64,000 nt of DNA. Origin: Thermoproteota archaeon (GTDB taxonomy: Archaea; Korarchaeota; Korarchaeia; Korarchaeales; Korarchaeaceae). The notes under the pieces are model-generated. The model was not told the origin of the DNA. It ran no database searches and saw only the letters and a list, made by a program, of their open reading frames with translations. Location of the stretch: assembly GCA_027491435.1 (NCBI GenBank), contig JAOZFG010000017.1, positions 44,466 through 108,465 on the forward strand, written 5' to 3'. Below are positions 3,075 to 59,034 of this stretch, piece after piece (positions within the stretch are counted from its first letter, which is position 1; each line of letters opens with the position of its first letter). The position numbers and the translations under genes were made by a program.

Positions 3075-3485
3075 TTAAAGATCCACTATAACTGTTGCCC
3101 TCCAGAGGCCATCCTCTTTCTTAACTGAGAACCTGTGATAGGTTATCGCCTTGATCTCGGTCTTGGGATCGTGTTTCTCCGGATTTATTTCCTCACCCTT
3201 GCACACGGCTTCGAGCCTGTTATCCTCTATCTTAACGTCAAACTGAGAGAATACTAGGCCCTCAACGTCTGTTATAAACAGGAGTTCTGAAAGCCATGAG
3301 TGCAATAACATGCTCAGGTCAGGGGCCTCTAGCCTTATCTCCCTGGAAACGATCGGCTCTACCTTACTCACGTCCACCATTATGTGGTAAAGGGCTAGCG
3401 CAGCTTCTTTGAACAACCCTTCGAGCGTCTCAGACCAGACCTCGAAGCCTATGTCTGCCTCAACTTCGATGAGCCTCCTGCCCAT
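3075..3485 (-). CDS. Archease (RtcB cofactor)
   Basis: ADIGFEV..TLEGLF.EAA, EIKAITYH, C-terminal VDL. Confidence 0.93.
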   Translation of the reverse strand: MGRRLIEVEADIGFEVWSETLEGLFKEAALALYHIMVDVSKVEPIVSREIRLEAPDLSMLLHSWLSELLFITDVEGLVFSQFDVKIEDNRLEAVCKGEEINPEKHDPKTEIKAITYHRFSVKKEDGLWRATVIVDL

Positions 3486-9316: not shown

Positions 9317-10258
9317 TTGGTAGTCAGGGTAGGAGTTATAGGTTGTGGTTGGTTCGGGTCAGCGCACGCTAGGGTCTACAGGCAGATAGGCGAAGCTGAA
9401 CTAGTAGCCGTAATGGATAAGGATCCTGTAGCCGCTAGGAGGTTGGGTGAGCTTTACCACATAAATTATTACACGTCCATAGAGGAGATGTTCCGTAAGG
9501 AGGAGCTAGACGCTGTTAGCGTGGTGGTTACTCCACAGAAACTGTTCGAAACTTCTATGAAGGTTATAGAGCATGGAGCCTCTCTGCTAGTTGAGAAGCC
9601 GGTAGTCGTCAGCAGGGATGAGCTATCTAAGTTCGTGAACGCTGTGAAGAGGAGTGACGTGATATTCATGCCGGGCTTTATTGAACTCTTTAACCTAGCG
9701 GTTGTTAAGGCTAAGGAGCTGATGGATAGGGGTGAGATTGGCGAGATACTGGCCTTGTGGTCCAGGAGGGTAGGGAGAACTCCTAAGAAAAAGCTAGGAT
9801 GGAAGATAGGCGTCTCTCTTGACTTAGCGGTGCATGAAGTCTACGTTTACAACAGATTAATGGGGGGTAGGCCGAACCACATCGCCTCCTTCACCGCCAA
9901 GGTGTTAAACGAGGGAGGTGAGGGCGAAGACTTGGCCATCTTCATAATGGAATACGGAAGAGTTGTGGGCAGCATAGAGACCAACTGGTTAACCCCCGTG
10001 GGCATAAGAGAGCTCCTAATATCTGGAGAGACAGGTACCTTGATAGTTAACTACGTGAATCAGGCTGTTGAGGTGAACAAGGGTGACGTAAGCGTGATCC
10101 CTAAGTACAGGAAAAAGGAGACTCTCTTGAGCGAATTAGAGTATTTCGTGACTCACGTTAAGATGGGTGAGAGACCAGATATAGGCATAGAGATGACTAA
10201 GGAGGTTTTAGGAACGTTATTTGACGGATTGGAGAGCAGCATACCGCTGGGGAAATAA
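9317..10258 (+). CDS. Gfo/Idh/MocA family oxidoreductase
   Basis: GVIGCGWFG, LVEKP, DLAVHE motifs. Confidence 0.92.
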   Translation: MVVRVGVIGCGWFGSAHARVYRQIGEAELVAVMDKDPVAARRLGELYHINYYTSIEEMFRKEELDAVSVVVTPQKLFETSMKVIEHGASLLVEKPVVVSRDELSKFVNAVKRSDVIFMPGFIELFNLAVVKAKELMDRGEIGEILALWSRRVGRTPKKKLGWKIGVSLDLAVHEVYVYNRLMGGRPNHIASFTAKVLNEGGEGEDLAIFIMEYGRVVGSIETNWLTPVGIRELLISGETGTLIVNYVNQAVEVNKGDVSVIPKYRKKETLLSELEYFVTHVKMGERPDIGIEMTKEVLGTLFDGLESSIPLGK

Positions 10259-10259
10259 C

Positions 10260-11315
10260 ATGAGGGGGGTCTTAGTAGGTAAGTACGTGTACGTGGAGGA
10301 GAAGGTGGATAAGCTCTATAAGCAGGGGTTCGGAGAGCTATCTGGAGGTAAATTAGAGCTCCACGTAGCTGAAGCTACTTACTTAGCTCATACAGGCAGG
10401 TTGAAGGTGTATGAAGGCGACAGGGAGTTGGGTGTATCGGACCTCCTGTTGATGCTTGAGGGAGACCAGTTCGTCAAGTACGTGGCTTATTCAGATCTCC
10501 GTAGGAAGGGAAGGGTTGTCGTTTACGAGAGGGCCACTGAGTTCCTCAGGTTGTACCCAAAGGGGAGGAGGGTTGGAGATGCACCCGCCAAGGAGCTAGT
10601 CTTTCCTCTATCAGAGGACAGCCTAGTTAAGCATAAGCTCATACTTGACGTCGTGGAGAAGGTGGCTAGGTTGAGGAAGAGGCTTGTGCTGGCTGTGGTT
10701 GATGATGAGATGAACGTCACCTACTACACGGCTGAGAACTTCATGCCGGAGAAGAGGGAGCCTAGCTGGAGAGTCCCGGAAGGCGAGTTTCGAGGTTACC
10801 TTGTGGGAGATAGAGTCTTAGTGGTGGATGGCGGGTCTCTATACAAAGAGGGCTTCTGGGGCCATCCCCTGGGAGTTGAAAAGCCAAGGCCCGGGGAGTT
10901 GTATGATGCTCCTTTGCAGCTCACCCTGATAGAGGCTATTTACCTCATCAGGAAGGGGGCTTTGACTGTTTACTCCGGAAAAAAGGTTATGACCGCTGAG
11001 GAACTCGGTAAACTGCATGAGAAGATAAGGGAGAGGGGCAAGGTTAAGGAGAGGGTCTTCGCCTACTGGAGGGACTTGGGTTACGTACCAAAGGCAGGAT
11101 CTAAGTTCGGGGCGGACTTCTTAGTTTACGAGAAGGGACCCGGGCTAGAACACGCCCCTTACCTGTGCATCTCTGGGGGTGTAGAAGAGGAAGTCAGGCC
11201 AGTGGACCTAATAAGGGCGGGAAGGCTAGCCACGTCCGTCAGGAAGGACTTGGTAGTGTCTTTGATTTCAGGTAACAGGGTCATCAGTTACAGGATTAAG
11301 TGGTTCAAACCCTGA
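10260..11315 (+). CDS. endA: tRNA-intron (BHB) endonuclease, two-unit type
   Basis: Two repeats; catalytic C-terminal unit KAGSKFGADFLVYEKGPGLEHAPY, RLATSVRK, YRIKWFKP; likely start ATG 10260. Confidence 0.93.
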   Translation: MRGVLVGKYVYVEEKVDKLYKQGFGELSGGKLELHVAEATYLAHTGRLKVYEGDRELGVSDLLLMLEGDQFVKYVAYSDLRRKGRVVVYERATEFLRLYPKGRRVGDAPAKELVFPLSEDSLVKHKLILDVVEKVARLRKRLVLAVVDDEMNVTYYTAENFMPEKREPSWRVPEGEFRGYLVGDRVLVVDGGSLYKEGFWGHPLGVEKPRPGELYDAPLQLTLIEAIYLIRKGALTVYSGKKVMTAEELGKLHEKIRERGKVKERVFAYWRDLGYVPKAGSKFGADFLVYEKGPGLEHAPYLCISGGVEEEVRPVDLIRAGRLATSVRKDLVVSLISGNRVISYRIKWFKP

Positions 11316-16965: not shown

Positions 16966-17042
16966 TGGTGCGGCCGCCGGGATTTGAACCCGGGTCGCCG
17001 GCTTGGGGGGCCGGCATCCTGTCCAGGCTAGACCACGGCCGC
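16966..17042 (-). tRNA. tRNA-Gly(CCC), with C at position 33
   Basis: GCGGCCG...CCGGC-CCCCCAA-GCCGG...GGTTCAAATCCCGGCGGCCGCACCA. Confidence 0.93.
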
Positions 17043-17047
17043 TAAGG

Positions 17048-17125
17048 TGGCGGGCCCGGGGGGACTCGAACCCCCGACCTGCGGCTTAGGAGGCCGCCGC
17101 TCTATCCTTGCTGAGCTACGGGCCC
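17048..17125 (-). tRNA. tRNA-Arg(CCT)
   Basis: GGGCCCG...GCGGC-CT CCT AA-GCCGC...GCCA. Confidence 0.97.
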
Positions 17126-17340
17126 AGTAAGATAGGTAGACCAGGGATTTTAAAAGTTTAGGGTCTGCATATCAGTAACACATATAAAGTAAATAGGAGT
17201 TATACGGGTAAATTATTCACTTGACATTTCTATAGTTCTAATTAACACGAGTTAAGGCTTTATTTGGTTTTATTCCTTTGGTCAGAATGTAAGAAGGGGT
17301 CCAGAACGCTTATATCCTTCGTTGGGGTAATATACATGCG

Positions 17341-18693: not shown

Positions 18694-19935
18694 TTGTCAA
18701 CTACGTACGAGCTCTATGAGTTCAGGAAGTTAATTAAGGAGCTTAAAAATAAGAGGGGTAGGGGTACTGAATTAATATCGTTGTACATACCACCCGGAAG
18801 AAATGTTTATGATGTTATCAAGTACCTGAGGAACGAGTACGACCAAGCGAGCAACATAAAAGATAAGCTCACCAGGAAGAATGTACAGAGCGCCATAGAA
18901 AGCATAATACAAAGGTTGAAACTCTACAAGAAGATCCCAGAGAATGGACTAGTGATATTCTGTGGTGCCATACCTAGGGGAAAGGATAGGGGGACTGAGA
19001 AGCTGGAGATATACGTAATAGAACCCCCTGAGCCGGTAAGGTCCTTCACTTACCTGTGCAGTCATGAGTTTCACTTGGAGCCCCTAGAGGAGATGGCTAA
19101 GGAAAAGAAAGCTTATGGGCTGATAGTCATGGACAGAGGAGGGGCTGTGCTAGCCATACTCAGAGGAGCTAACTACAGGATTGTGGACGAGGTAACTTCT
19201 GACATCCCACCAAAGCACAGCGCTGGAGGGCAATCTCAGAGGAGGTTCGAGAGGATAAGGGAGGAGAGGGTTCATGACTTCTTTAAGAGAGTTGGCATGA
19301 GGGCCAATCAAGCCTTCCTACCCTTGGGAGATGACTTAGAAGGCATCATAATAGGCGGGCCAGGGGACGCCAGGGAAAAGTTCGAGGAGGGTAACTTCTT
19401 GGATTACAGGCTTCAAAAGAAGATAATAGCCAACTTACCGCTATCATACACTGAGGAGCAAGGGGTTAGAGAGCTCATCATGAAAGCTGAGGACGTTCTC
19501 TCAGAGTCAGCCCTTTATAAGGAGAAGAGGGCTGTCGACGAGATATTCACTTTAATAGCTAAAGGGTCTAACAGAGTCGTGTATGGGCTTAGAGAGGTGG
19601 AAGAGGCACTTCTAGCTGGGGCTGTCGAGAAATTACTCTTATTGGAGGATTTACAGGTAAAGAGAGTCACTATAAGGTGTACTCAGTGCAAGTACGAGGA
19701 GAGCAAGTTCGTGAGGCCAGAGAAGGGGCTGAAGTTGGAGTCCTGGGAGTGTCCTAGGTGTGGTTCAACTACTGCCGAGGTGGAGGAGCAGGATATAATA
19801 GAATATTTTGGCGAGTTAGGGAAGCAGACAGGCGCTGAGGTCATTATAATATCTGCGAATACCGAGTGGGGCAATCAGCTGAAGGCCATAGGAGGTATAG
19901 CCGCCGTGCTGAGGTACGAACTGCACGGCTACTGA
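18694..19935 (+). CDS. prf1: Peptide chain release factor aRF1
   Basis: GRGTELISLYIPP, SNIKD, YLC, GGQSQRRF, C4 Zn minidomain, GGIAAVLRY. Confidence 0.97.
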   Translation: MSTTYELYEFRKLIKELKNKRGRGTELISLYIPPGRNVYDVIKYLRNEYDQASNIKDKLTRKNVQSAIESIIQRLKLYKKIPENGLVIFCGAIPRGKDRGTEKLEIYVIEPPEPVRSFTYLCSHEFHLEPLEEMAKEKKAYGLIVMDRGGAVLAILRGANYRIVDEVTSDIPPKHSAGGQSQRRFERIREERVHDFFKRVGMRANQAFLPLGDDLEGIIIGGPGDAREKFEEGNFLDYRLQKKIIANLPLSYTEEQGVRELIMKAEDVLSESALYKEKRAVDEIFTLIAKGSNRVVYGLREVEEALLAGAVEKLLLLEDLQVKRVTIRCTQCKYEESKFVRPEKGLKLESWECPRCGSTTAEVEEQDIIEYFGELGKQTGAEVIIISANTEWGNQLKAIGGIAAVLRYELHGY

Positions 19936-19973
19936 GAGGAAACTTTTATTATGGCATGGCCCAACTATAAACT

Positions 19974-20047
19974 AGGCCGGTGGCGCAGGCTGGTAGCGCG
20001 CCGCCTTCGCAAGGCGGAGGTCGGGGGTTCAAGTCCCCCCCGGTCCA
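19974..20047 (+). tRNA. tRNA-Ala(CGC); genomic A1:C72 mismatch
   Basis: AGGCCGG...CCGCC-TT CGC AA-GGCGG...CCGGTCCA; G3:U70 present. Confidence 0.93.
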
Positions 20048-20050
20048 CTT

Positions 20051-20125
20051 GGGCCCGTGGCTCAGACTGGTAAGAGCGCCCGGCTGATAACCGGGAGGTC
20101 GGGGGTTCAAGTCCCCCCGGGCCCA
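20051..20125 (+). tRNA. tRNA-Ile(GAT)
   Basis: GGGCCCG...CCCGG-CT GAT AA-CCGGG...CGGGCCCA. Confidence 0.97.
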
Positions 20126-21872: not shown

Positions 21873-23099
21873 ATGAGCTTGAAGTCTATAATCAAGTCTG
21901 CCTATAAGAGAGCTGAAGAAGAGCCTATTGAAACCCCAGATAAGGTGGCCCCTGAAGATTCCATGCTTAAGGAGTTCGTTGAGAAGGTAAAGGCTAGGAT
22001 AGTTATCATGGGGATAGGAGGTGCCGGCAGCAATACGATCACTAGGCTGAACGCAATTGGTATAGATTCCGTAGAGACCATAGCTGTTAACACCGACGCC
22101 CAACACCTCCTCACCACCTCTGCTGACAGGAAGATCTTGATTGGAAAGGAAGTATGCGGGGGCAACGGCTCTGGAGGGGATCCTAGGATTGGTGAAGAGG
22201 CCGCTAGAGAGAGTTCTGAGGATATTAAAGAGATACTGGCTGGGACCGATATACTCTTCCTGATGGCTGGGCTGGGAGGGGGCACCGGGACGGGCGCCAG
22301 TCCTGTAATAGCGGATATAGCTAAGCAGCTAGGGGCTGTTGTAGTGTCAATAGTGACCCTTCCGTTCTCTGCCGAGGGGATGAAGAAAAAGGAGATAGCC
22401 ATGGAAGGACTTGCTAGGCTAGCTAAGTCCTCAGATACTATAGTCGTGGTAAACAACGACAGGATCTTGGATATAGCCAAGGAGCTCCCCCTGTATCAGG
22501 CGTTCTTCATATCCGACGAGATAGTCGCCAGGGCCGTCAAGGGAATGGTGGAGATAGTCATGAAGCCCGGACTCATAAACGTGGATCTGGCTGACCTTAG
22601 AAACGTACTTGAGAAGGGAGGCCCAGCCGTACTCACCTTCGGCGAAAGCGATGGAGAGAACAGGGCTATAGAGGCAGTAGATGACGCGTTAGAAAACCCC
22701 TTGCTGGACGCTGATATATCTGGCGGGAAAGCGGCCATAATTAACATAACCTCTGGACCTGATTTCTCCCTGAACGAGATGGAGCAGATCGTCGAGACAA
22801 TTGTCGGATCATTAGATCCCAACGCTAACGTTATATGGGGAGCTAGGATAGACGAGAGCTTGAAGGGATCGGTCCAGGTGTTGTTGGTGGTTACGGGGGT
22901 CGCTTCCCCATCAGTAGAGGCAGCACTTCAGGGCGAGTTTGAGGCCCCGGCTACCTTGGAGAGAACTACAGTTCCTAAGGTGGAGGTTAAGACTAAGTTG
23001 AAGGGTAAGAAGACCTTAGAGAGGAAAACCGTCCCTATAAGACAGGCAGGAAAGAAGAGGGAGAGTTACAGTGGAGACTTCGGCATAGACGAACTGTGA
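21873..23099 (+). CDS. ftsZ1: Cell division protein FtsZ1
   Basis: GIGGAGSN, AVNTDAQHL, GLGGGTGTG, GLINVDLAD; ftsZ-secE-spt5-L11 context. Confidence 0.97.
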   Translation: MSLKSIIKSAYKRAEEEPIETPDKVAPEDSMLKEFVEKVKARIVIMGIGGAGSNTITRLNAIGIDSVETIAVNTDAQHLLTTSADRKILIGKEVCGGNGSGGDPRIGEEAARESSEDIKEILAGTDILFLMAGLGGGTGTGASPVIADIAKQLGAVVVSIVTLPFSAEGMKKKEIAMEGLARLAKSSDTIVVVNNDRILDIAKELPLYQAFFISDEIVARAVKGMVEIVMKPGLINVDLADLRNVLEKGGPAVLTFGESDGENRAIEAVDDALENPLLDADISGGKAAIINITSGPDFSLNEMEQIVETIVGSLDPNANVIWGARIDESLKGSVQVLLVVTGVASPSVEAALQGEFEAPATLERTTVPKVEVKTKLKGKKTLERKTVPIRQAGKKRESYSGDFGIDEL

Positions 23100-27685: not shown

Positions 27686-27761
27686 TGGTAGCCCCGCCCG
27701 GATTCGAACCGGGGTCTCCGGGTCCAAAGCCCGGCGTGCTTGGCCGCTACACCACGGGGCT
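27686..27761 (-). tRNA. tRNA-Gln(TTG)
   Basis: AGCCCCG (A1:U72 archaeal Gln)...CCGGG-CT TTG GA-CCCGG...ACCA. Confidence 0.97.
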
Positions 27762-27769
27762 TCAAAAGT

Positions 27770-27859
27770 TGGTGCGGGGGGTGGGATTTGAACCCACGCG
27801 GGCCTGACGCCCACCGGACCCTGAATCCGGCGCCTTGGGCCTGGCTTGGCTACCCCCGC
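27770..27859 (-). tRNA. tRNA-Leu(CAG)
   Basis: GCGGGGG...CCGGA-TT CAG GG-TCCGG, long variable arm, ACCA. Confidence 0.97.
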
Positions 27860-27861
27860 TT

Positions 27862-27939
27862 TGGTGCTCCGGCCGGGATTTGAACCCGGGTCTGGGGCTC
27901 GAAAGGCCCCTATGCTTGGCCGGGCTACACCACCGGAGC
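27862..27939 (-). tRNA. tRNA-Glu(TTC)
   Basis: GCTCCGG...GGGGC-CT TTC GA-GCCCC...ACCA. Confidence 0.97.
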
Positions 27940-33507: not shown

Positions 33508-33618
33508 GGGCCCGTGGCTCAGACTGGATAGAGCGCCCGCCTTATATGGCGGCTCCCGCTACATAACCGCCAGAGGAGAAGCGGGAGGTCGGGGGTTCAA
33601 GTCCCCCCGGGCCCACCA
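33508..33618 (+). tRNA. tRNA-Ile(TAT) with 33-nt intron (about 33546-33578)
   Basis: Body nearly identical to tRNA-Ile(GAT); CCCGC-CT TAT [intron] AA-GCGGG; intron helix TGGCGG/CCGCCA and BHB-like CCTT/GAGG helix. Confidence 0.92.
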
Positions 33619-39346: not shown

Positions 39347-39508
39347 ATGGTGGTGATCTCACTACACGTCCCCCCTCCTCTAGCTGAGGAGTTGGAGAGG
39401 TTGGTGAAGGAGGCCGGATATACCAGCAAGAGTGAGGCCATAAGAGAGGCGATAAGGCTCCTGATAAGGGAGCACAGGAAGAAGGTTAGAGGAGGTGTTG
39501 CCACTTGA
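39347..39508 (+). CDS. cdrS: Ribbon-helix-helix regulator CdrS-like, coupled to ftsZ2
   Basis: MVVISLHVP..LAEELERLV...GY.SKSEAIREAIR; overlaps ftsZ2 start, as in cdrS-ftsZ2 operons. Confidence 0.8.
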   Translation: MVVISLHVPPPLAEELERLVKEAGYTSKSEAIREAIRLLIREHRKKVRGGVAT

Positions 39509-40749
39509 GCCTTAACATGAAGTACTCGTCCCCAGCTAAGGAAATGGCTGAGATGTTCAGTAAAATACTCGACATACCAGTTCTTGGAAACAACAAGGTC
39601 AAAGGCTTCGTCCCAGAGGTTAGCGATGTGGGCAGCGATGTGAGTAGTGAAGGCTTAAGCGGGGAGTCCGAAGTAGGTCAGGGAAACATAGTCATCGTAG
39701 GGGTAGGAGGGTGCGGCTCCAACACCGTGGAAACCATAGCCAAGCTCAAGGTCAAGGGAATAAAGTTGGTGGCCATAAACACTGACAAGCATCACTTAGA
39801 CGGGGTGGAGGTTCCTAACAAGATACTCATAGGAGAGAGCATAACCAACGGGCTTGGGGCCGGTGGCATACCAGAAGTCGCCAGGGCCTGCGCCGAACAT
39901 GACGCACACAAGATATCAGAAGCCCTGGGCAGTAGACCTGACCTAGTGTTCATAGCCGCTGGCATGGGTGGAGGGACGGGAACTGGAGCCGCTCCCGTGG
40001 TCGCTAAGATAGCCAAGGATAAAGGTGCAAAGGTAGTTGGCTTCGTCACCATGCCTTTCAGGACCGAGGGCAGACACAAGATGAGGATCGCTCAAGAGGG
40101 CGTCAAACAGCTTAGGAAGTGGGCAGACACCGTTGTCCTGATATCTAACGATAAGCTGTTACAGCTTGCTGGCGACCTATCAGTTGACGAGGCTTTCAAG
40201 ATGGCTGACCTCACCCTGGCCACCATGGTCAAGGGAATAGCTGAGATAATATGGAGGAGGACTATGATGAACATAGACTTAAATGACATAAAGCTGTTGA
40301 TGAGCGCCGGTGGAGTTGCTGCAGTGGGAATTGGGCAATCAAGCGATCCCAAGAGAAGGGCCTCTGAGGCCGTTAAGATGGCCCTTAAAAATCAGTTGAT
40401 AGACATATCGCCGGACGGCGCTAAGGGTGCCCTGATAGTCGTATACGGGGGTAACCTTAAGTTAAATGAGGTCTACGAGATAAGCGAGATAGTTACCTCC
40501 AGAATGTCTAGCGACGCGATAGTCAAGATAGGGGCTGACATAGACCCTAGCCTTGGGGATACCCTCAGGGTAATCCTCTTGTTGACCGGGGTTAAATCCC
40601 CTGATATACTGGGAGGGAATTTCATAGCCCCTAAGAAGTCCGTGCTCACGCCTGCCTCACTAAGTGGGGACGGCGGGTTCAGGTTCAATAAAGAGATAGA
40701 CATAGATAGCATATCGGACATCCTAGGAGGGGAGCTGGGTTTCATATAA
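39505..40749 (+). CDS. ftsZ2: Cell division protein FtsZ2
   Basis: GVGGCGSN, AINTDKHHL, GLGAGG.P, GMGGGTGTGAAP, NIDLND. Confidence 0.95.
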   Translation: MSLNMKYSSPAKEMAEMFSKILDIPVLGNNKVKGFVPEVSDVGSDVSSEGLSGESEVGQGNIVIVGVGGCGSNTVETIAKLKVKGIKLVAINTDKHHLDGVEVPNKILIGESITNGLGAGGIPEVARACAEHDAHKISEALGSRPDLVFIAAGMGGGTGTGAAPVVAKIAKDKGAKVVGFVTMPFRTEGRHKMRIAQEGVKQLRKWADTVVLISNDKLLQLAGDLSVDEAFKMADLTLATMVKGIAEIIWRRTMMNIDLNDIKLLMSAGGVAAVGIGQSSDPKRRASEAVKMALKNQLIDISPDGAKGALIVVYGGNLKLNEVYEISEIVTSRMSSDAIVKIGADIDPSLGDTLRVILLLTGVKSPDILGGNFIAPKKSVLTPASLSGDGGFRFNKEIDIDSISDILGGELGFI

Positions 40750-48964: not shown

Positions 48965-48983
48965 CTTACCTCACAACCTAGAG

Positions 48984-49056
48984 TGCCGGGGGAGGGATTT
49001 GAACCCTCGACCTTCCGGTCTTCAGCCGGACGCTCTCCCACCTGAGCTACCCCGGC
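48984..49056 (-). tRNA. tRNA-Phe(GAA)
   Basis: GCCGGGG...TCCGG-CT GAA GA-CCGGA...CCCCGGCA. Confidence 0.97.
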
Positions 49057-49060
49057 AACG

Positions 49061-49136
49061 TGGTGGACCGGGGGGGATTCGAACCCCCGACCTCCCGCAT
49101 GCCAAGCGGGCGCGCTACCAACTGCGCCACCGGCCC
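49061..49136 (-). tRNA. tRNA-Ala(GGC)
   Basis: GGGCCGG...CCCGC-TT GGC AT-GCGGG...CCGGTCCACCA. Confidence 0.97.
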
Positions 49137-49312
49137 AACTTTTCTGTGGTCTAACCAGTATATTAAGATAACTCAAGCTTACTAACAAGTCACCCTCTAG
49201 GTCCCCCCAGTATATTTTATTAATTTAACTATTTTGTATCTTAAATGTCAGTAATTAAATGATATATCAGATTATTAATAAATAATTTAATAGAAATTGG
49301 AATTTGGTTACT

Positions 49313-50214: not shown

Positions 50215-50613
50215 TTGAGGTTCTTAAAGAAGATATTCGGTAGAGCTGAGGAAGATGAGTACGAGGAATACCCAGAGGATGAGTTCGTCGAAGAGAGTTT
50301 CGAGGAAGAGTACCCAGAGGAACCGGTGAGGATGAGGTTCCCTTCAGAGAAGGCCATAACCGTTAAGCCTATGAACCTCAGAACCGCTGAAGATGTGGAG
50401 CAGGTCCTAAACGAGATAAGTGAGGGAAACATAATACTGCTTAGGTACGACGACCTGATATCTGAAGGTGAGGAAAGGCTGAAGTACATACTTCAAAGGC
50501 TTAAAGAAAGGGTAGCTGAAATGGGCGGAGATCTGGTAATGATAAGGGAGCAGGGCGCTCCTCCCCTGCTCATAGTGCCTAGGTTTGTTGAGATATGGAG
50601 GAAGCCCAGGTAA
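50215..50613 (+). CDS. sepF: Cell division protein SepF (archaeal type)
   Basis: N-terminal amphipathic FLKKIFG, acidic linker, DV..V..EI.EGNIILL, L......GGD...I....LLIVP..V.I. Confidence 0.85.
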   Translation: MRFLKKIFGRAEEDEYEEYPEDEFVEESFEEEYPEEPVRMRFPSEKAITVKPMNLRTAEDVEQVLNEISEGNIILLRYDDLISEGEERLKYILQRLKERVAEMGGDLVMIREQGAPPLLIVPRFVEIWRKPR

Positions 50614-54484: not shown

Positions 54485-55936
54485 TCAACCCTTCACCACT
54501 CCGACTGGAACCAGTCTAGCGACCAATTTAGCTATTCCGGCCTTGTGAGTGGCCGTAACCACCTCATCAACGTCCTTATAGGCGCCAGGGGCCTCTTCAG
54601 CGGCTACAGCGTAAGAGGCCGGTTTCACTATTATCCCCCTTTGGGCCAGCATTTCAACTATCTGCCTGCCCCTATATATCCTCTTCGCACGGGCCCTGCT
54701 CATCACCCTCCCAGCCCCGTGGGCGGTGGTCCCGAAGGACTCCTCCATGGCCTTATGGGTGCCTACCATAATGTAGGAAGCAGTTCCTTGTGAGCCCGGT
54801 ATCAGTACAGGCTGTCCTATGTCACGATAATCCTCAGGTATTGCCGGATGACCAGGCGGGAATGACCTCGTTGCCCCCTTCCTGTGCACGTACACCTTAA
54901 CGGTCTTTCCGTCCACCACGTGTTCCTCCAACTTAGCTATGTTGTGGGCCACGTCATAAACAAGTTTCATTCCCATGTCCTCAGCGCTCCTGCCGAACAC
55001 TTGTTCAAAAGACTCCCTTACCCAATGAGTTATAACCTGTCTGTTGGCCCAAGCGTAGTTGGCGGCCCCCTTCATAGCCTTGAAGTACCTTTGAGCCACT
55101 TCAGAATTCGTATAGGCGCATATAAGTTGCTTGTCAGGGAGTCTGAAGTCTAAGGAGCTTATCCTAGACATCATGTACCTCAAGTAATCGTCAGCCACCT
55201 GATGCCCAAACCCCCTGCTTCCTGTGTGAACCATTACCGTTATTTGCCCCTCTGAGAATATACCCATTTTTTTGGCAGCCTCTGGATCATATATTTTATC
55301 AACTTTCTGAACCTCTAAGAAGTGATTTCCGCTGCCCAGAGTGCCCAACTGAGGAGCCCCCCTCTGCTTGGCCCTCTGGCTTATAACGCTGGGATCTGCC
55401 CCTTCCATCATCCCTCCTTCCTCAGCGTGTCTCAGGTCCGACTCCCATCCATAACCCCTTTCAACGGCCCATCTAGCGCCTCCTACTATTACTTCGTCCA
55501 TCTGAGCTGGAGTGAGCCTAAGCCTTCCCCTGCTACCCAAGCCAGACGGTACATTCCTGAACAGAGTGTCTACTAACTGTTTTATCTTAGGCCTGACGTC
55601 CTTCTCTGTAAGGTCGGTCCTTATCAGCCTGACCCCGCAGTTTATGTCGAAACCTACGCCTCCTGGGCTTATAACTCCGTTGTAAGCGTCGAAGGCAGCG
55701 ACTCCCCCTATGGGAAAGCCGTATCCCTCGTGTATGTCGGGCATAGCTATGGAGTACTTGTAAATTCCGGGTAACATGGCCACGTTGGCCAGTTGTTCTA
55801 TGGCTCCCCGCTCAATGTTCTTAACTAGCTTCTCCGTGGCGAAAACTAGGCCCGGCACCCTCATACCTGGCTTGTAGTTTTGTGGGAGCAGCCACCTGAC
55901 ATTGTCTATTTTTTTAAGTATGCCCTCGACTCCCAT
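54485..55936 (-). CDS. rtcB: tRNA-splicing ligase RtcB (true start ATG 55936)
   Basis: [65 protein letters not shown]. Confidence 0.97.
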
Positions 55937-56006
55937 GAGAACACCCCTGTATAGGAAGGGGAATCGATATTTAAAAGGAAGATAAGGTGGTTTATCGAGA
56001 GCAGCT

Positions 56007-56762
56007 GTGAGGTTAAAGAGGAGGTTAAGCCAGCACATCATGATTTCCAAGAAGTGGATAAGGGTGATGGCTGATCTACTCGAGATAACTCCTGAAGAAG
56101 AGGTAGTTGAGATAGGAGCTGGTACCGGAAATCTAAGCTTGGAAATAGCTTCTAGAAGGCCTAAAAGGCTTGTGCTCATTGAAGTAGACCCTGAGGCTGT
56201 TGCAATCCTGAGGGAGAGATCCTTTCCTGACATCGAGGTTAGAATACTCAACGAAGACGTTAGAAGGCTTTTTCCCATCAAAACTGATAAAGTAGTCTCT
56301 AATACGCCATACGGGATTTCTTCGGAAATGTTCATTGGTTTGGTGAGCAGTGAGTTCAAGCGGTGCGTAATAACCTTTCAAAAGGAGTTCGCTGACAGGC
56401 TACTAGCCAAGCCAGGAACCCCCAGCTATGGGAGCCTCTCGGTAATAGCTCAGGTGAGGTTCTCCATCAGGAGGATAGCGATCATAGGCAAGACGAACTT
56501 CTTCCCCCCTCCCAGGGTGGACTCAACTCTGCTAATTTTAGAGCCCAAAAAAGTCGATTTTGAGGTGTTAGAATCTTTGTTAAGGTATGGGAAGGCTATA
56601 TTCTTCAGAAGAAAAAAGAAGCTGAGGAATTCTCTTAGGGGCGTTCCAAAGGACCTGTTGAGCGAGGTCCCTCACGGCGATGAGAGACCATACAACCTAA
56701 CCCCTGAAGAGGTAGTGGAGGTGGCCCTTTGGTTGAAAGAGAGGTTAGGGGCATCAGGCTGA
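56007..56762 (+). CDS. rsmA: 16S rRNA m6,2A dimethyltransferase KsgA/Dim1
   Basis: L.QH, EIGAGTG.L, VSN.PY.ISS, QKEFA.RL.A.PG...YG.LSV, F.PPP.VDS. Confidence 0.95.
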
Positions 56763-57591: not shown

Positions 57592-57716
57592 CATTATATT
57601 AGTAAAAACTCTAAATTAACCTTTCCGTCTCTGCGTTAAGTCTAGCCACAAGCTATGATAAACTAGGCCCCGGACCGACGCGTGAACTTTATAAATCCGC
57701 CTGCGGTTCTAAGGAT

Positions 57717-57792
57717 GGGCCCGTAGCTCAGTCGGTAGAGCGCCGGCTTTGCAAGCCGGAGGTCCCGGGTTCGAATCCCGGCGGGTCCACCA
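57717..57792 (+). tRNA. tRNA-Ala(TGC)
   Basis: GGGCCCG...CCGGC-TT TGC AA-GCCGG...CGGGTCCACCA. Confidence 0.97.
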
Positions 57793-57819: not shown

Positions 57820-57892
57820 GGCCGGGGCCGGGATTTGAACCCGGGTTAAGGGCTCCACAGGCCCCCAGGTTGCCAGGCTACCTCACCCCGGC
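57820..57892 (-). tRNA. tRNA-His(GTG); G-1 not encoded
   Basis: GCCGGGG...GGGGC-CT GTG GA-GCCCT...CCCCGGC-C73; genomic -1 base is T. Confidence 0.95.
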
Positions 57893-57902
57893 ATAAGTAG
57901 GG

Positions 57903-57979
57903 TGGTGCGGCCGCCGGGATTTGAACCCGGGTCTGGGGCGTGGCAGGCCCCCATCCTATCCAGGCTAGACTACGGCCGC
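57903..57979 (-). tRNA. tRNA-Gly(GCC)
   Basis: GCGGCCG...GGGGC-CT GCC AC-GCCCC...ACCA. Confidence 0.97.
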
Positions 57980-58031: not shown

Positions 58032-58703
58032 ATGATCACCGTGATCTTAGCTGAATCCTCCTTACACTTTATCCCTAAGAAGTATCATAAGGATAGGTCC
58101 GTTATCAAATTATCGAGAAAAAGGAAGAGAGATCCCTCACATATCCTTATGGATTTAAGCGAGCTGAGGTCGCTGGGATTTAAGTCCAAGGTAGGGGAGA
58201 AGGAGGGGAGGCCTGACGTAGTCCACAGGTCCCTGCTGTCCGTTACCGATAGCCCCTTATTTCTAATGGGAAGGATTAAGTTATACCTCCACACAGTTGA
58301 GGATAGGCTTTTTGAAGTTAAGGAGGGCGTCAGGCCTCCCAGGTCTTACAGGAGGTTCGTCGGCCTCATGGAGGAGTTACTGAGAAAGGGATCGGTGGGG
58401 CCTCCTGGGAAGCCTTTGATACGAGAGCTTAACTCTGACTTATCTGAAGTGATTTCGGGGAAGGTCTTTTTGCTTCGTGAAGGCGGAACCCTGCAGGACC
58501 CGATTAAGTTGCTCTCCTCAATCGATAGCTTCTCCATAATCGTAGGGGCCTTTCCCCACGGGGACTTTAGGGAGGAGGTCAGATCCCTGGCAGACGTGAA
58601 CGTCACCCTATATAAGGGAACGCTCTCATCGTCTACCGCAATATCGATGATGCTCGCCTACGCCTACTACGTGGAGGTATGGTATGCCGAGGAGGAGAGT
58701 TAA
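58032..58703 (+). CDS. nep1: Nep1/Emg1 16S rRNA pseudouridine methyltransferase
   Basis: ILAESSL..IP, GRPDVVH.SLL, RPPRSY.RF.GLME.LL, VGAFPHGDF. Confidence 0.95.
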   Translation: MITVILAESSLHFIPKKYHKDRSVIKLSRKRKRDPSHILMDLSELRSLGFKSKVGEKEGRPDVVHRSLLSVTDSPLFLMGRIKLYLHTVEDRLFEVKEGVRPPRSYRRFVGLMEELLRKGSVGPPGKPLIRELNSDLSEVISGKVFLLREGGTLQDPIKLLSSIDSFSIIVGAFPHGDFREEVRSLADVNVTLYKGTLSSSTAISMMLAYAYYVEVWYAEEES

Positions 58704-59034
58704 GGAGAAGAGGATTGCCAGGGAAAGGATTGTCAGGTTGCTAAGGCTGGCCGACGAGATCTACAGGGAGGAACTGGACTTAGCCTTGAAGTACGGGGAG
58801 TTAGCCAGGAGAATCTCCTTGAGGACCAGGGTGAAGATACCTAGGGAGTGGAAGTGGAGGTTCTGCAAGAACTGCGGCTCCCTGCTATTTCCCGGAGTTA
58901 ACGCCCAGGTCAGGTTGAGGGACAGGAGGATGCCTCACATCGTGATTCACTGTCTGAAGTGTGGATCCATCAGGAGAATACCATACCTCAGGGAGAAGAG
59001 GTTGCGTCGAAGCTTAGGTAACCAAACGTTTTAA
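58684..59034 (+). CDS. rnp4: RNase P protein Rpp21 (component 4)
   Basis: IARERI..L, Y..LARRI, K.RFCKNC.S.L.PG....VR, CL.CG..RR.PY. Confidence 0.95.
   Translation: MPRRRVKEKRIARERIVRLLRLADEIYREELDLALKYGELARRISLRTRVKIPREWKWRFCKNCGSLLFPGVNAQVRLRDRRMPHIVIHCLKCGSIRRIPYLREKRLRRSLGNQTF

Follow-up and report, generated by a model that had tools for sequence, protein, structure and literature searches.

Archaeal and bacterial Thg1-like polymerases (TLPs) repair tRNAs with truncated 5' ends in vitro, while their natural substrates are a puzzle. In the available text of two reviews, it is argued that editing is not a role of these enzymes since 5' mismatches are absent from archaeal tRNA genes, and annotated archaeal and bacterial tRNA genes are described there as free of such mismatches (PMC3061083, PMC4284800). 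The tRNA-Ala(CGC) gene in the 64,000-nucleotide stretch of DNA analysed here (the window) is a counter-example to this premise, its position 1 being an A that stands opposite C72, and a tRNA-Ile gene in a related genome may be a second one. The first-pass annotation of this DNA knew of no documented archaeal genomic substrate of this kind, which agrees with the accessible parts of both reviews (PMC3061083, PMC4284800), and a literature search outside subscription journals and tRNA databases found no mention of an archaeal tRNA-Ala(CGC) with an A1:C72 mismatch.

The question raised by the locus is whether A1 is replaced by G after transcription or is kept in the mature tRNA. If the 5' end is edited, an archaeal 3'-5' polymerase would have its first natural non-His substrates in this tRNA-Ala(CGC) and the related tRNA-Ile(GAU), and 5' tRNA editing would for the first time be found beyond the organelles of eukaryotes. 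A mature tRNA that keeps A1 would instead make the change an ordinary tolerated substitution, and show no more than that an elongator tRNA of a probable thermophile can work with an open 1:72 end. Both A1:C72 genes belong to a lineage in which a Thg1-like enzyme is probably present and, for tRNA-His, apparently required. The tRNA-Ala(CGC) gene is thus a cheap natural test case, of one tRNA and one nucleotide, for the in vivo role of archaeal 3'-5' polymerases.

The tRNA-Ala(CGC) gene and its acceptor end

ARAGORN called a tRNA-Ala(cgc) at 19974-20048, and the Rfam tRNA family RF00005 matched positions 19974-20047 from end to end with 58.7 bits (gathering score 29; E 4e-10). The gene is the first of two in a tandem unit with the following features:

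18694..19935, + strand: eRF1 (peptide chain release factor) gene, with Pfam eRF1_1/2/3, immediately upstream of the tRNA unit
19934-19943, + strand: purine-rich stretch GAGAGGAAAC, directly upstream of the TATA-like box
19944..19951, + strand: TATA-like box TTTTATTA, at -30..-23 from position 1 of tRNA-Ala(CGC)
19973..19973, + strand: U(-1), which could pair with A73 (from the sequence)
19974..20047, + strand: tRNA-Ala(CGC) gene, 74 nt, no CCA encoded (ARAGORN, Rfam tRNA and sequence), with A1 at 19974, G3 at 19976, the anticodon CGC at 20008-20010, U70 at 20044, C72 at 20046 and A73 at 20047
20048..20050, + strand: spacer CTT, 3 nt, between the two tRNA genes
20051..20125, + strand: tRNA-Ile(GAU), second gene of the unit, with G1:C72 intact (Rfam 73 bits, ARAGORN)

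Downstream of the unit lie a gene for a PIN-domain protein and one for an RNA polymerase E'-like protein with an S1 domain.

The acceptor strands of tRNA-Ala(CGC) read AGGCCGG on the 5' side (19974-19980) and CCGGTCC on the 3' side (20040-20046), followed by A73 (20047), which places A1 (19974) opposite C72 (20046) while G3 (19976) pairs with U70 (20044). The sequence and the Rfam alignment therefore bear out the mismatch as it was first described, and also the statement that the rest of the cloverleaf, including G3:U70, is intact: pair 1:72 is the only one flagged in the Rfam alignment, in which 20 of the 21 pairs are standard. The four helices of the cloverleaf are all present with an Rfam score above the threshold, and so are the features expected of an alanine tRNA (anticodon CGC, G3:U70 and A73); the acceptor stem, in turn, is not fully paired over its seven positions, since 1:72 is open. 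In the minimum free energy structure computed with RNAfold, A1 and C72 are unpaired (-41.2 kcal/mol), and a G1 form made in silico reaches -45.2 kcal/mol. Other acceptor registers, with the 5' start shifted by 1 or with 3' tails of 1-4 nt, were tried and none was better than the annotated one with 6 of 7 pairs. A pair between U(-1) and A73 is possible, yet it is unused by RNAfold.

One base alone allows no test against chance, and A1 was judged as an outlier in its context. It is the exception in 1 of 17 orthologous genes, in 1 of 231 cells of the alignment that represent base pairs, and in 1 of the 16 tRNA genes of the window, none of the others having an acceptor-stem mismatch. The tRNA-Gln of the window has an A1:U72 end. 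As first reported, the two sibling alanine tRNAs begin with G1:

49061..49136, - strand: tRNA-Ala(GGC), G1:C72, CCA encoded
57717..57792, + strand: tRNA-Ala(UGC), G1:C72

The acceptor stem of tRNA-Ala(GGC), GGGCCGG...CCGGTCC-A, is the same as that of tRNA-Ala(CGC) except for G1. Judged from the sequences, A1:C72 is a real, derived single-base oddity, and the tRNA gene that carries it is in all other respects ordinary and well conserved.

Orthologous loci and the origin of A1

Relatives of the gene were found in genome contigs by a degenerate pattern over tRNA positions 18-46; position 1 could therefore not bias the search, which gave no self-hit. The 16 loci obtained are from other archaeal species, all of them metagenome-assembled genomes (MAGs), labelled as Thermoproteota/Crenarchaeota (11), Nitrososphaerota (2), Aenigmatarchaeota (1), Njordarchaeota (1) and 'uncultured archaeon' (1). 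Their orthology is supported by shared synteny, as eRF1 lies upstream of the tRNA in 14 of the 16 loci (tblastn), and tRNA-Ile(GAU) follows downstream after 1-10 nt in 12 of the 16 and after 148-541 nt in two more. By gene order, eRF1, a TATA box, tRNA-Ala(CGC), 1-10 nt and tRNA-Ile(GAU) form a conserved unit. Nucleotide identity over eRF1 and the tRNAs was 69.5-75.2% in the 11 loci whose alignment spans the region from end to end, and amino-acid identity of eRF1 reached 78.7% at most; the scan of genome contigs gave no closer relative above 75.2% at the nucleotide level or about 79% in eRF1.

All 16 relatives have G1:C72 in their tRNA-Ala(CGC) gene, and none has A1. In the alignment of 17 rows (11 of them distinct), 230 of the 231 pair cells are standard, the exception being the A:C of the window, and compensatory double changes are found at 5 pairs, indicating that this tRNA family is under normal structural selection. 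The window gene departs from its six nearest orthologs at 2 of its 74 nt, namely A1 and one base of the D loop, while the flanking eRF1-tRNA region is only 73.4-75.2% identical to theirs. A quick eRF1 tree was built with IQ-TREE, with SH-aLRT support only, from 14 rows; three loci without a full eRF1 (L004, L005 and L010) were left out. The window sits on its own long branch of 0.18 inside a clade of 12 with 100% support, and L002 and L007 fall outside. Since G is present in the sister groups, in the outgroup rows and in both alanine paralogues, G1 is ancestral and A1 derived on the branch of the window, and among the sampled loci A1 is, on this phylogenetic evidence, lineage-restricted. The first-pass annotation, which had proposed editing of the 5' end, had held that a G in close relatives would speak against its proposal. 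All 16 relatives do carry G1, which makes editing less probable without disproving it, but none of them is close (69.5-75.2% nucleotide identity).

The reading that we favour, with a probability of about one half, is that tRNA-Ala(CGC) carries a derived and tolerated G-to-A change and is most likely used as encoded, with A1. A G-to-A transition at position 1 on the branch to the window genome would have left an A:C at the end of the acceptor helix, and the tRNA would be expressed, charged and used with A1. Alanine identity lies in G3:U70, G2:C71 and A73, a set that is untouched in this gene, and the terminal pair is the cheapest and mildest site for a mismatch in the stem. A change from G:C to A:U usually passes through A:C. 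A fraction of the molecules may lose nucleotide 1, either by initiation at G2 or by an RNase P cut one nucleotide in, and a Thg1-like enzyme could restore G1:C72 on them, a step that a tolerated change would not need. A functional tRNA with an unpaired 1:72 end is known from the bacterial initiator tRNA, which has a C1xA72 mismatch; unlike it, the tRNA of the window is an elongator tRNA-Ala, and its mismatch is not conserved (0 of 16 relatives). Toleration is supported by the state of the gene, which, with 2 differences in 74 positions, 230 of 231 standard pair cells and 5 compensated pairs, is by these measures not decaying. Against it, loss of the terminal G:C pair costs about 4 kcal/mol at 37 °C in the nearest-neighbour model, which may matter if the organism is a thermophile, and its G+C-rich tRNAs suggest life at high temperature. 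Moreover, if 5' mismatches are normally purged in archaea, as the accessible statements of the reviews would imply (PMC3061083, PMC4284800), A1:C72 may need help.

A second A1:C72 end was found among the relatives, in the locus L010:

L010 1358-1432, - strand: tRNA-Ile(GAU) with A1:C72 in a related MAG, AGGCCCG...CGGGCCC-A (Rfam 66.8 bits)

This gene lies directly behind its own TATA-like box, TTTTTAAG, and at each of the 13 further loci where a tRNA-Ile(GAU) occurs, its first base is G. Among the 49 tRNA models that ARAGORN produced for the window and the loci (17 assemblies), these two are the only acceptor-stem mismatches and both are A1:C72; for the 16 loci taken by themselves, the number is 1 of 33 tRNA genes. 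As they affect different tRNAs in different lineages, the two events are independent. By our own post hoc estimate, two random hits would fall on the same one of 42 stem positions with a chance of about 1 in 42. The coincidence argues against random sequencing error as a joint explanation and for a tolerance specific to this position. It fits selection tolerating change at position 1, and it hints that position 1 is unusually permissive in this clade. Promoter proximity as a factor shared by both genes was considered and given no weight, since a promoter directly precedes about 33 of the 49 tRNA genes.

Another unusual tRNA was seen in the Njordarchaeota MAG (L005 961-1033, - strand). It is well formed, with the alanine anticodon CGC and an Rfam score of 78.3 bits, with U3:A70 in place of G3:U70 and no G:U anywhere in its acceptor stem, and thus lacks the universal alanine identity pair. 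Since U3:A70 needs two base changes, a single sequencing error does not explain it.

Repair of the 5' end as an alternative

The first-pass annotation had offered another explanation, according to which A1 is removed or never transcribed and G1 is added opposite C72. In such a scheme transcription would start at G2, or A1 would be removed by RNase P or another nuclease, and a Thg1-like polymerase would then add G1. Such editing is mechanistically possible, and nothing in the sequence requires it; we consider it unlikely, and the evidence on it comes from the promoter, the processing machinery and the substrates of known enzymes. The box TTTTATTA presumably serves the Ala(CGC)-Ile(GAU) unit as its promoter. 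It had been described as a TTTATTA box about 29-30 nt upstream of the gene, and its location at -30..-23 agrees with this and fits a start at or next to position 1. By the archaeal TATA-to-start spacing rule, transcription from this box is predicted to begin at position 1 or a few nucleotides away from it, and the T(-1)/A(+1) step resembles the archaeal initiator dinucleotide. Editing would profit from this arrangement, as there is a G at +2 and a transcript beginning with pppG2 could serve directly, with no activation step. In the orthologous loci, a TTTWWW motif starts between -35 and -25 in 14 of 16, and with a distance that varies from about -35 to -25, leaders of 0-5 nt are expected. Short leaders thus probably exist in this family, which argues against a strict leaderless design and, with it, against editing. 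In the window itself, a TATA-like box precedes most of the promoter-proximal tRNA genes, its start lying about 30-33 nt upstream of position 1 (examples at 17126-17160 (-), 49137-49170 (-) and 57685-57716 (+)), and this suggests that leaders are in general very short or absent.

The presence of one of its protein subunits shows that the organism has RNase P, and processing by this enzyme would still be needed for this unit because of the tandem tRNA-Ile(GAU) downstream. The window encodes:

58684..59031, + strand: RNase P protein subunit Rpp21/Rpr2 (Pfam PF04032, E 1.4e-16)

Removal of A1 by RNase P has a parallel in the reconstituted Pyrococcus enzyme, for which the accessible text reports that a pre-tRNA with a weak 1:72 pair is miscleaved one nucleotide in, to about 19% of the products (PMC3378863); this speaks for editing. 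For a dedicated removal step, on the other hand, a review states, in its available part, that the nuclease is known in no 5'-editing system (PMC4284800), a point against it.

A hint of a suitable polymerase comes from the tRNA-His gene of the window:

57820..57892, - strand: tRNA-His(GUG), C73, T at -1, no G-1 encoded

The absence of an encoded G-1, which the first reading of the sequence had already remarked on, was confirmed with T at -1 and C73. It implies either post-transcriptional addition of G-1 or a HisRS that is independent of G-1, and from the gene sequence the organism appears to rely on a Thg1-like enzyme for tRNA-His, or on an unusual HisRS. Where C73 is present and G-1 is not encoded, archaeal Thg1-type enzymes are described as adding a templated G-1 (PMC2904730, PMC6471195, in their accessible parts), and Thg1 orthologs are reported in korarchaea (PMC2904730, same limit), to which the window seems to belong. 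In vitro, archaeal TLPs add a missing G+1 opposite C72 on truncated tRNAs, non-His tRNAs included, according to the available text of PMC3061083. All of this favours editing, as does the second A1:C72, in the L010 tRNA-Ile, likewise behind a TATA box. By contrast, no Thg1 domain (PF04446) was found among the 73 window ORFs scanned with Pfam (a greedy non-overlapping set of ORFs of at least 90 aa), a result that refers to the window.

Comparison with known systems gives a mixed picture. With the TLP-dependent 5' tRNA editing of mitochondria (Acanthamoeba, Dictyostelium, Spizellomyces and Physarum), the locus shares an encoded 5'-side mismatch within the first three acceptor pairs, which can be corrected from the 5' side, a G opposite C72 restoring the ancestral pair; it also shares a templating 5'-repair enzyme family that is probably present in the lineage of the window (PMC4284800, PMC2904730, as far as their accessible text goes). 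Unlike in those mitochondria, where most tRNAs are affected (12 of 15 in Acanthamoeba, in the available part of PMC4284800) and the mature RNA differs from the gene, the mismatch here is seen in the gene sequence and is derived, and mismatches were found in one of the window's 16 tRNA genes and in one of the 33 from the 16 loci, with A1 in none of the 16 relatives of tRNA-Ala(CGC). These low counts weigh against editing. A further difference is that the organism is an archaeon, and for Archaea the consulted text of the reviews reports no annotated substrates (PMC3061083, PMC4284800). In the in vitro 5' repair by MaTLP and BtTLP the substrate is artificially truncated, whereas here position 1 is still encoded and would have to be skipped or removed. 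The leaderless tRNAs of Nanoarchaeum equitans (Randau et al. 2008, as cited in the available text of PMC4284800) resemble tRNA-Ala(CGC) in a purine at position 1, and probably in a promoter distance that would make transcription begin there or beside it. They differ in that the organism of the window has an RNase P subunit where Nanoarchaeum equitans lacks RNase P, that tandem tRNAs with spacers of 1-10 nt need endonucleolytic 5' processing here, and that the promoter distance varies by up to about 10 nt among orthologs.

The assignment of the window to a korarchaeal lineage, which bears on the presence of Thg1, comes from its gene content. The window has 49.6% G+C and no N, and contains the start of an archaeal 16S rRNA. 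Its features include:

33508-33615, + strand: intron-bearing tRNA, whose exons are a near copy of the tRNA-Ile(GAU) at 20051-20125, with a 33-nt intron
54485-56356, - strand: RtcB ligase (Pfam)
3075-3482, - strand: archease (Pfam)
10221-11312, + strand: two-repeat (alpha2-type) splicing endonuclease (Pfam)
21873-23096 and 39505-40746, + strand: two FtsZ paralogues (Pfam)
50215-50610, + strand: SepF homologue (Pfam)

The intron-bearing tRNA is missed by ARAGORN when the intron option is not used. Spliced at the canonical site 37/38, it has the anticodon UAU and is a tRNA-Ile3; the label Leu(tag) given by ARAGORN is not supported by the tRNA body. A tRNA-Ile(UAU) is rare in archaea and is reported for Korarchaeum and Nanoarchaeum, and Ca. 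Korarchaeum cryptofilum has an intron-bearing one that resembles its own tRNA-Ile(GAU) (PMC6000648, PMC8450103, in the parts available). The same species is described, in the accessible text of PMC3239211, as the one archaeon outside the euryarchaea that has an alpha2-type endonuclease. The window is like Ca. Korarchaeum cryptofilum in both respects, and from the intron-bearing tRNA-Ile(UAU), the two-repeat endonuclease, FtsZ and a G+C content of 49.6% its lineage looks korarchaeal. Two FtsZ paralogues and a SepF homologue, in a genome with relatives labelled Thermoproteota, are consistent with FtsZ-based division in the lineage. RtcB, archease and the endonuclease bring the tRNA splicing machinery together in the window. 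The RtcB ORF has 623 aa, with the domain beginning at residue 188, and the preceding part could be an N-terminal extension or result from a false upstream start.

Sequencing error, decay and other alternatives

It is unlikely as well that A1 arose by an error in sequencing or assembly, or comes from a minority allele that entered the consensus, and that the true base at 19974 is G. Such an error would explain why a single transition sets this one genome apart, when 16 of 16 relatives and both sibling isoacceptors have G. On the other side, the window contains no N and all but 5 of the 73 long ORFs match Pfam, which suggests good base quality without proving it, and the only two stem mismatches in 49 tRNA models share both position and base (the post hoc chance of about 1 in 42 given above). 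A likewise unlikely combination of toleration and repair would be that a change of G1 to A is tolerated in promoter-proximal korarchaeal tRNA genes because position 1, left out by a start at G2 or cut off by RNase P, is re-added after transcription by the Thg1-like enzyme of tRNA-His.

The tolerated change that we favour is helped by the low demand on this tRNA. In the 68 Pfam-supported ORFs of the window, GCG accounts for 151 of the 1242 alanine codons (12.2%) and is the second-rarest of them, just above GCA. The tRNA-Ala(UGC) can also read GCG by wobble, and tRNA-Ala(CGC) is a partly redundant and probably the least used of the alanine isoacceptors. The same facts, rare GCG codons and a tRNA-Ala(UGC) gene at hand, would suit a redundant tRNA-Ala(CGC) gene, inactivated by the mismatch and now degenerating while tRNA-Ala(UGC) reads GCG, and clade-specific loss of archaeal tRNA-CNN genes is the subject of one study (PMC6000648). 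Decay is nonetheless very unlikely: the gene has neither the several disruptive changes nor the low score nor the promoter loss of a pseudogene, but a single mismatch. It matches the nearest orthologs at all but 2 of 74 positions, all other pairs are intact, and the promoter box is kept at a conserved distance. Furthermore, the gene heads the tRNA-Ile(GAU) unit and is presumably still transcribed.

Correction on the 3' side, by deamination of C72 to U to give A1:U72, is highly improbable: A:C is the one mismatch that C-to-U deamination can fix, as it does in the tRNA stems of plant organelles, and the tRNA-Gln of the window shows that A1:U72 is acceptable, but the Pfam scan of 73 window ORFs gave no deaminase domain, no archaeal activity of this kind is known to act on tRNA position 72, and the archaeal tRNA C-to-U deaminase of Methanopyrus acts on position 8.

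The tRNA genes of the window include five tight clusters with spacers of 2-10 nt (16966-17125, 19974-20125, 27686-27939, 48983-49136 and 57820-57979). A full CCA is encoded by 10 of the 16 genes, with the other 6 lacking it, and genes with and without CCA adjoin each other within clusters.
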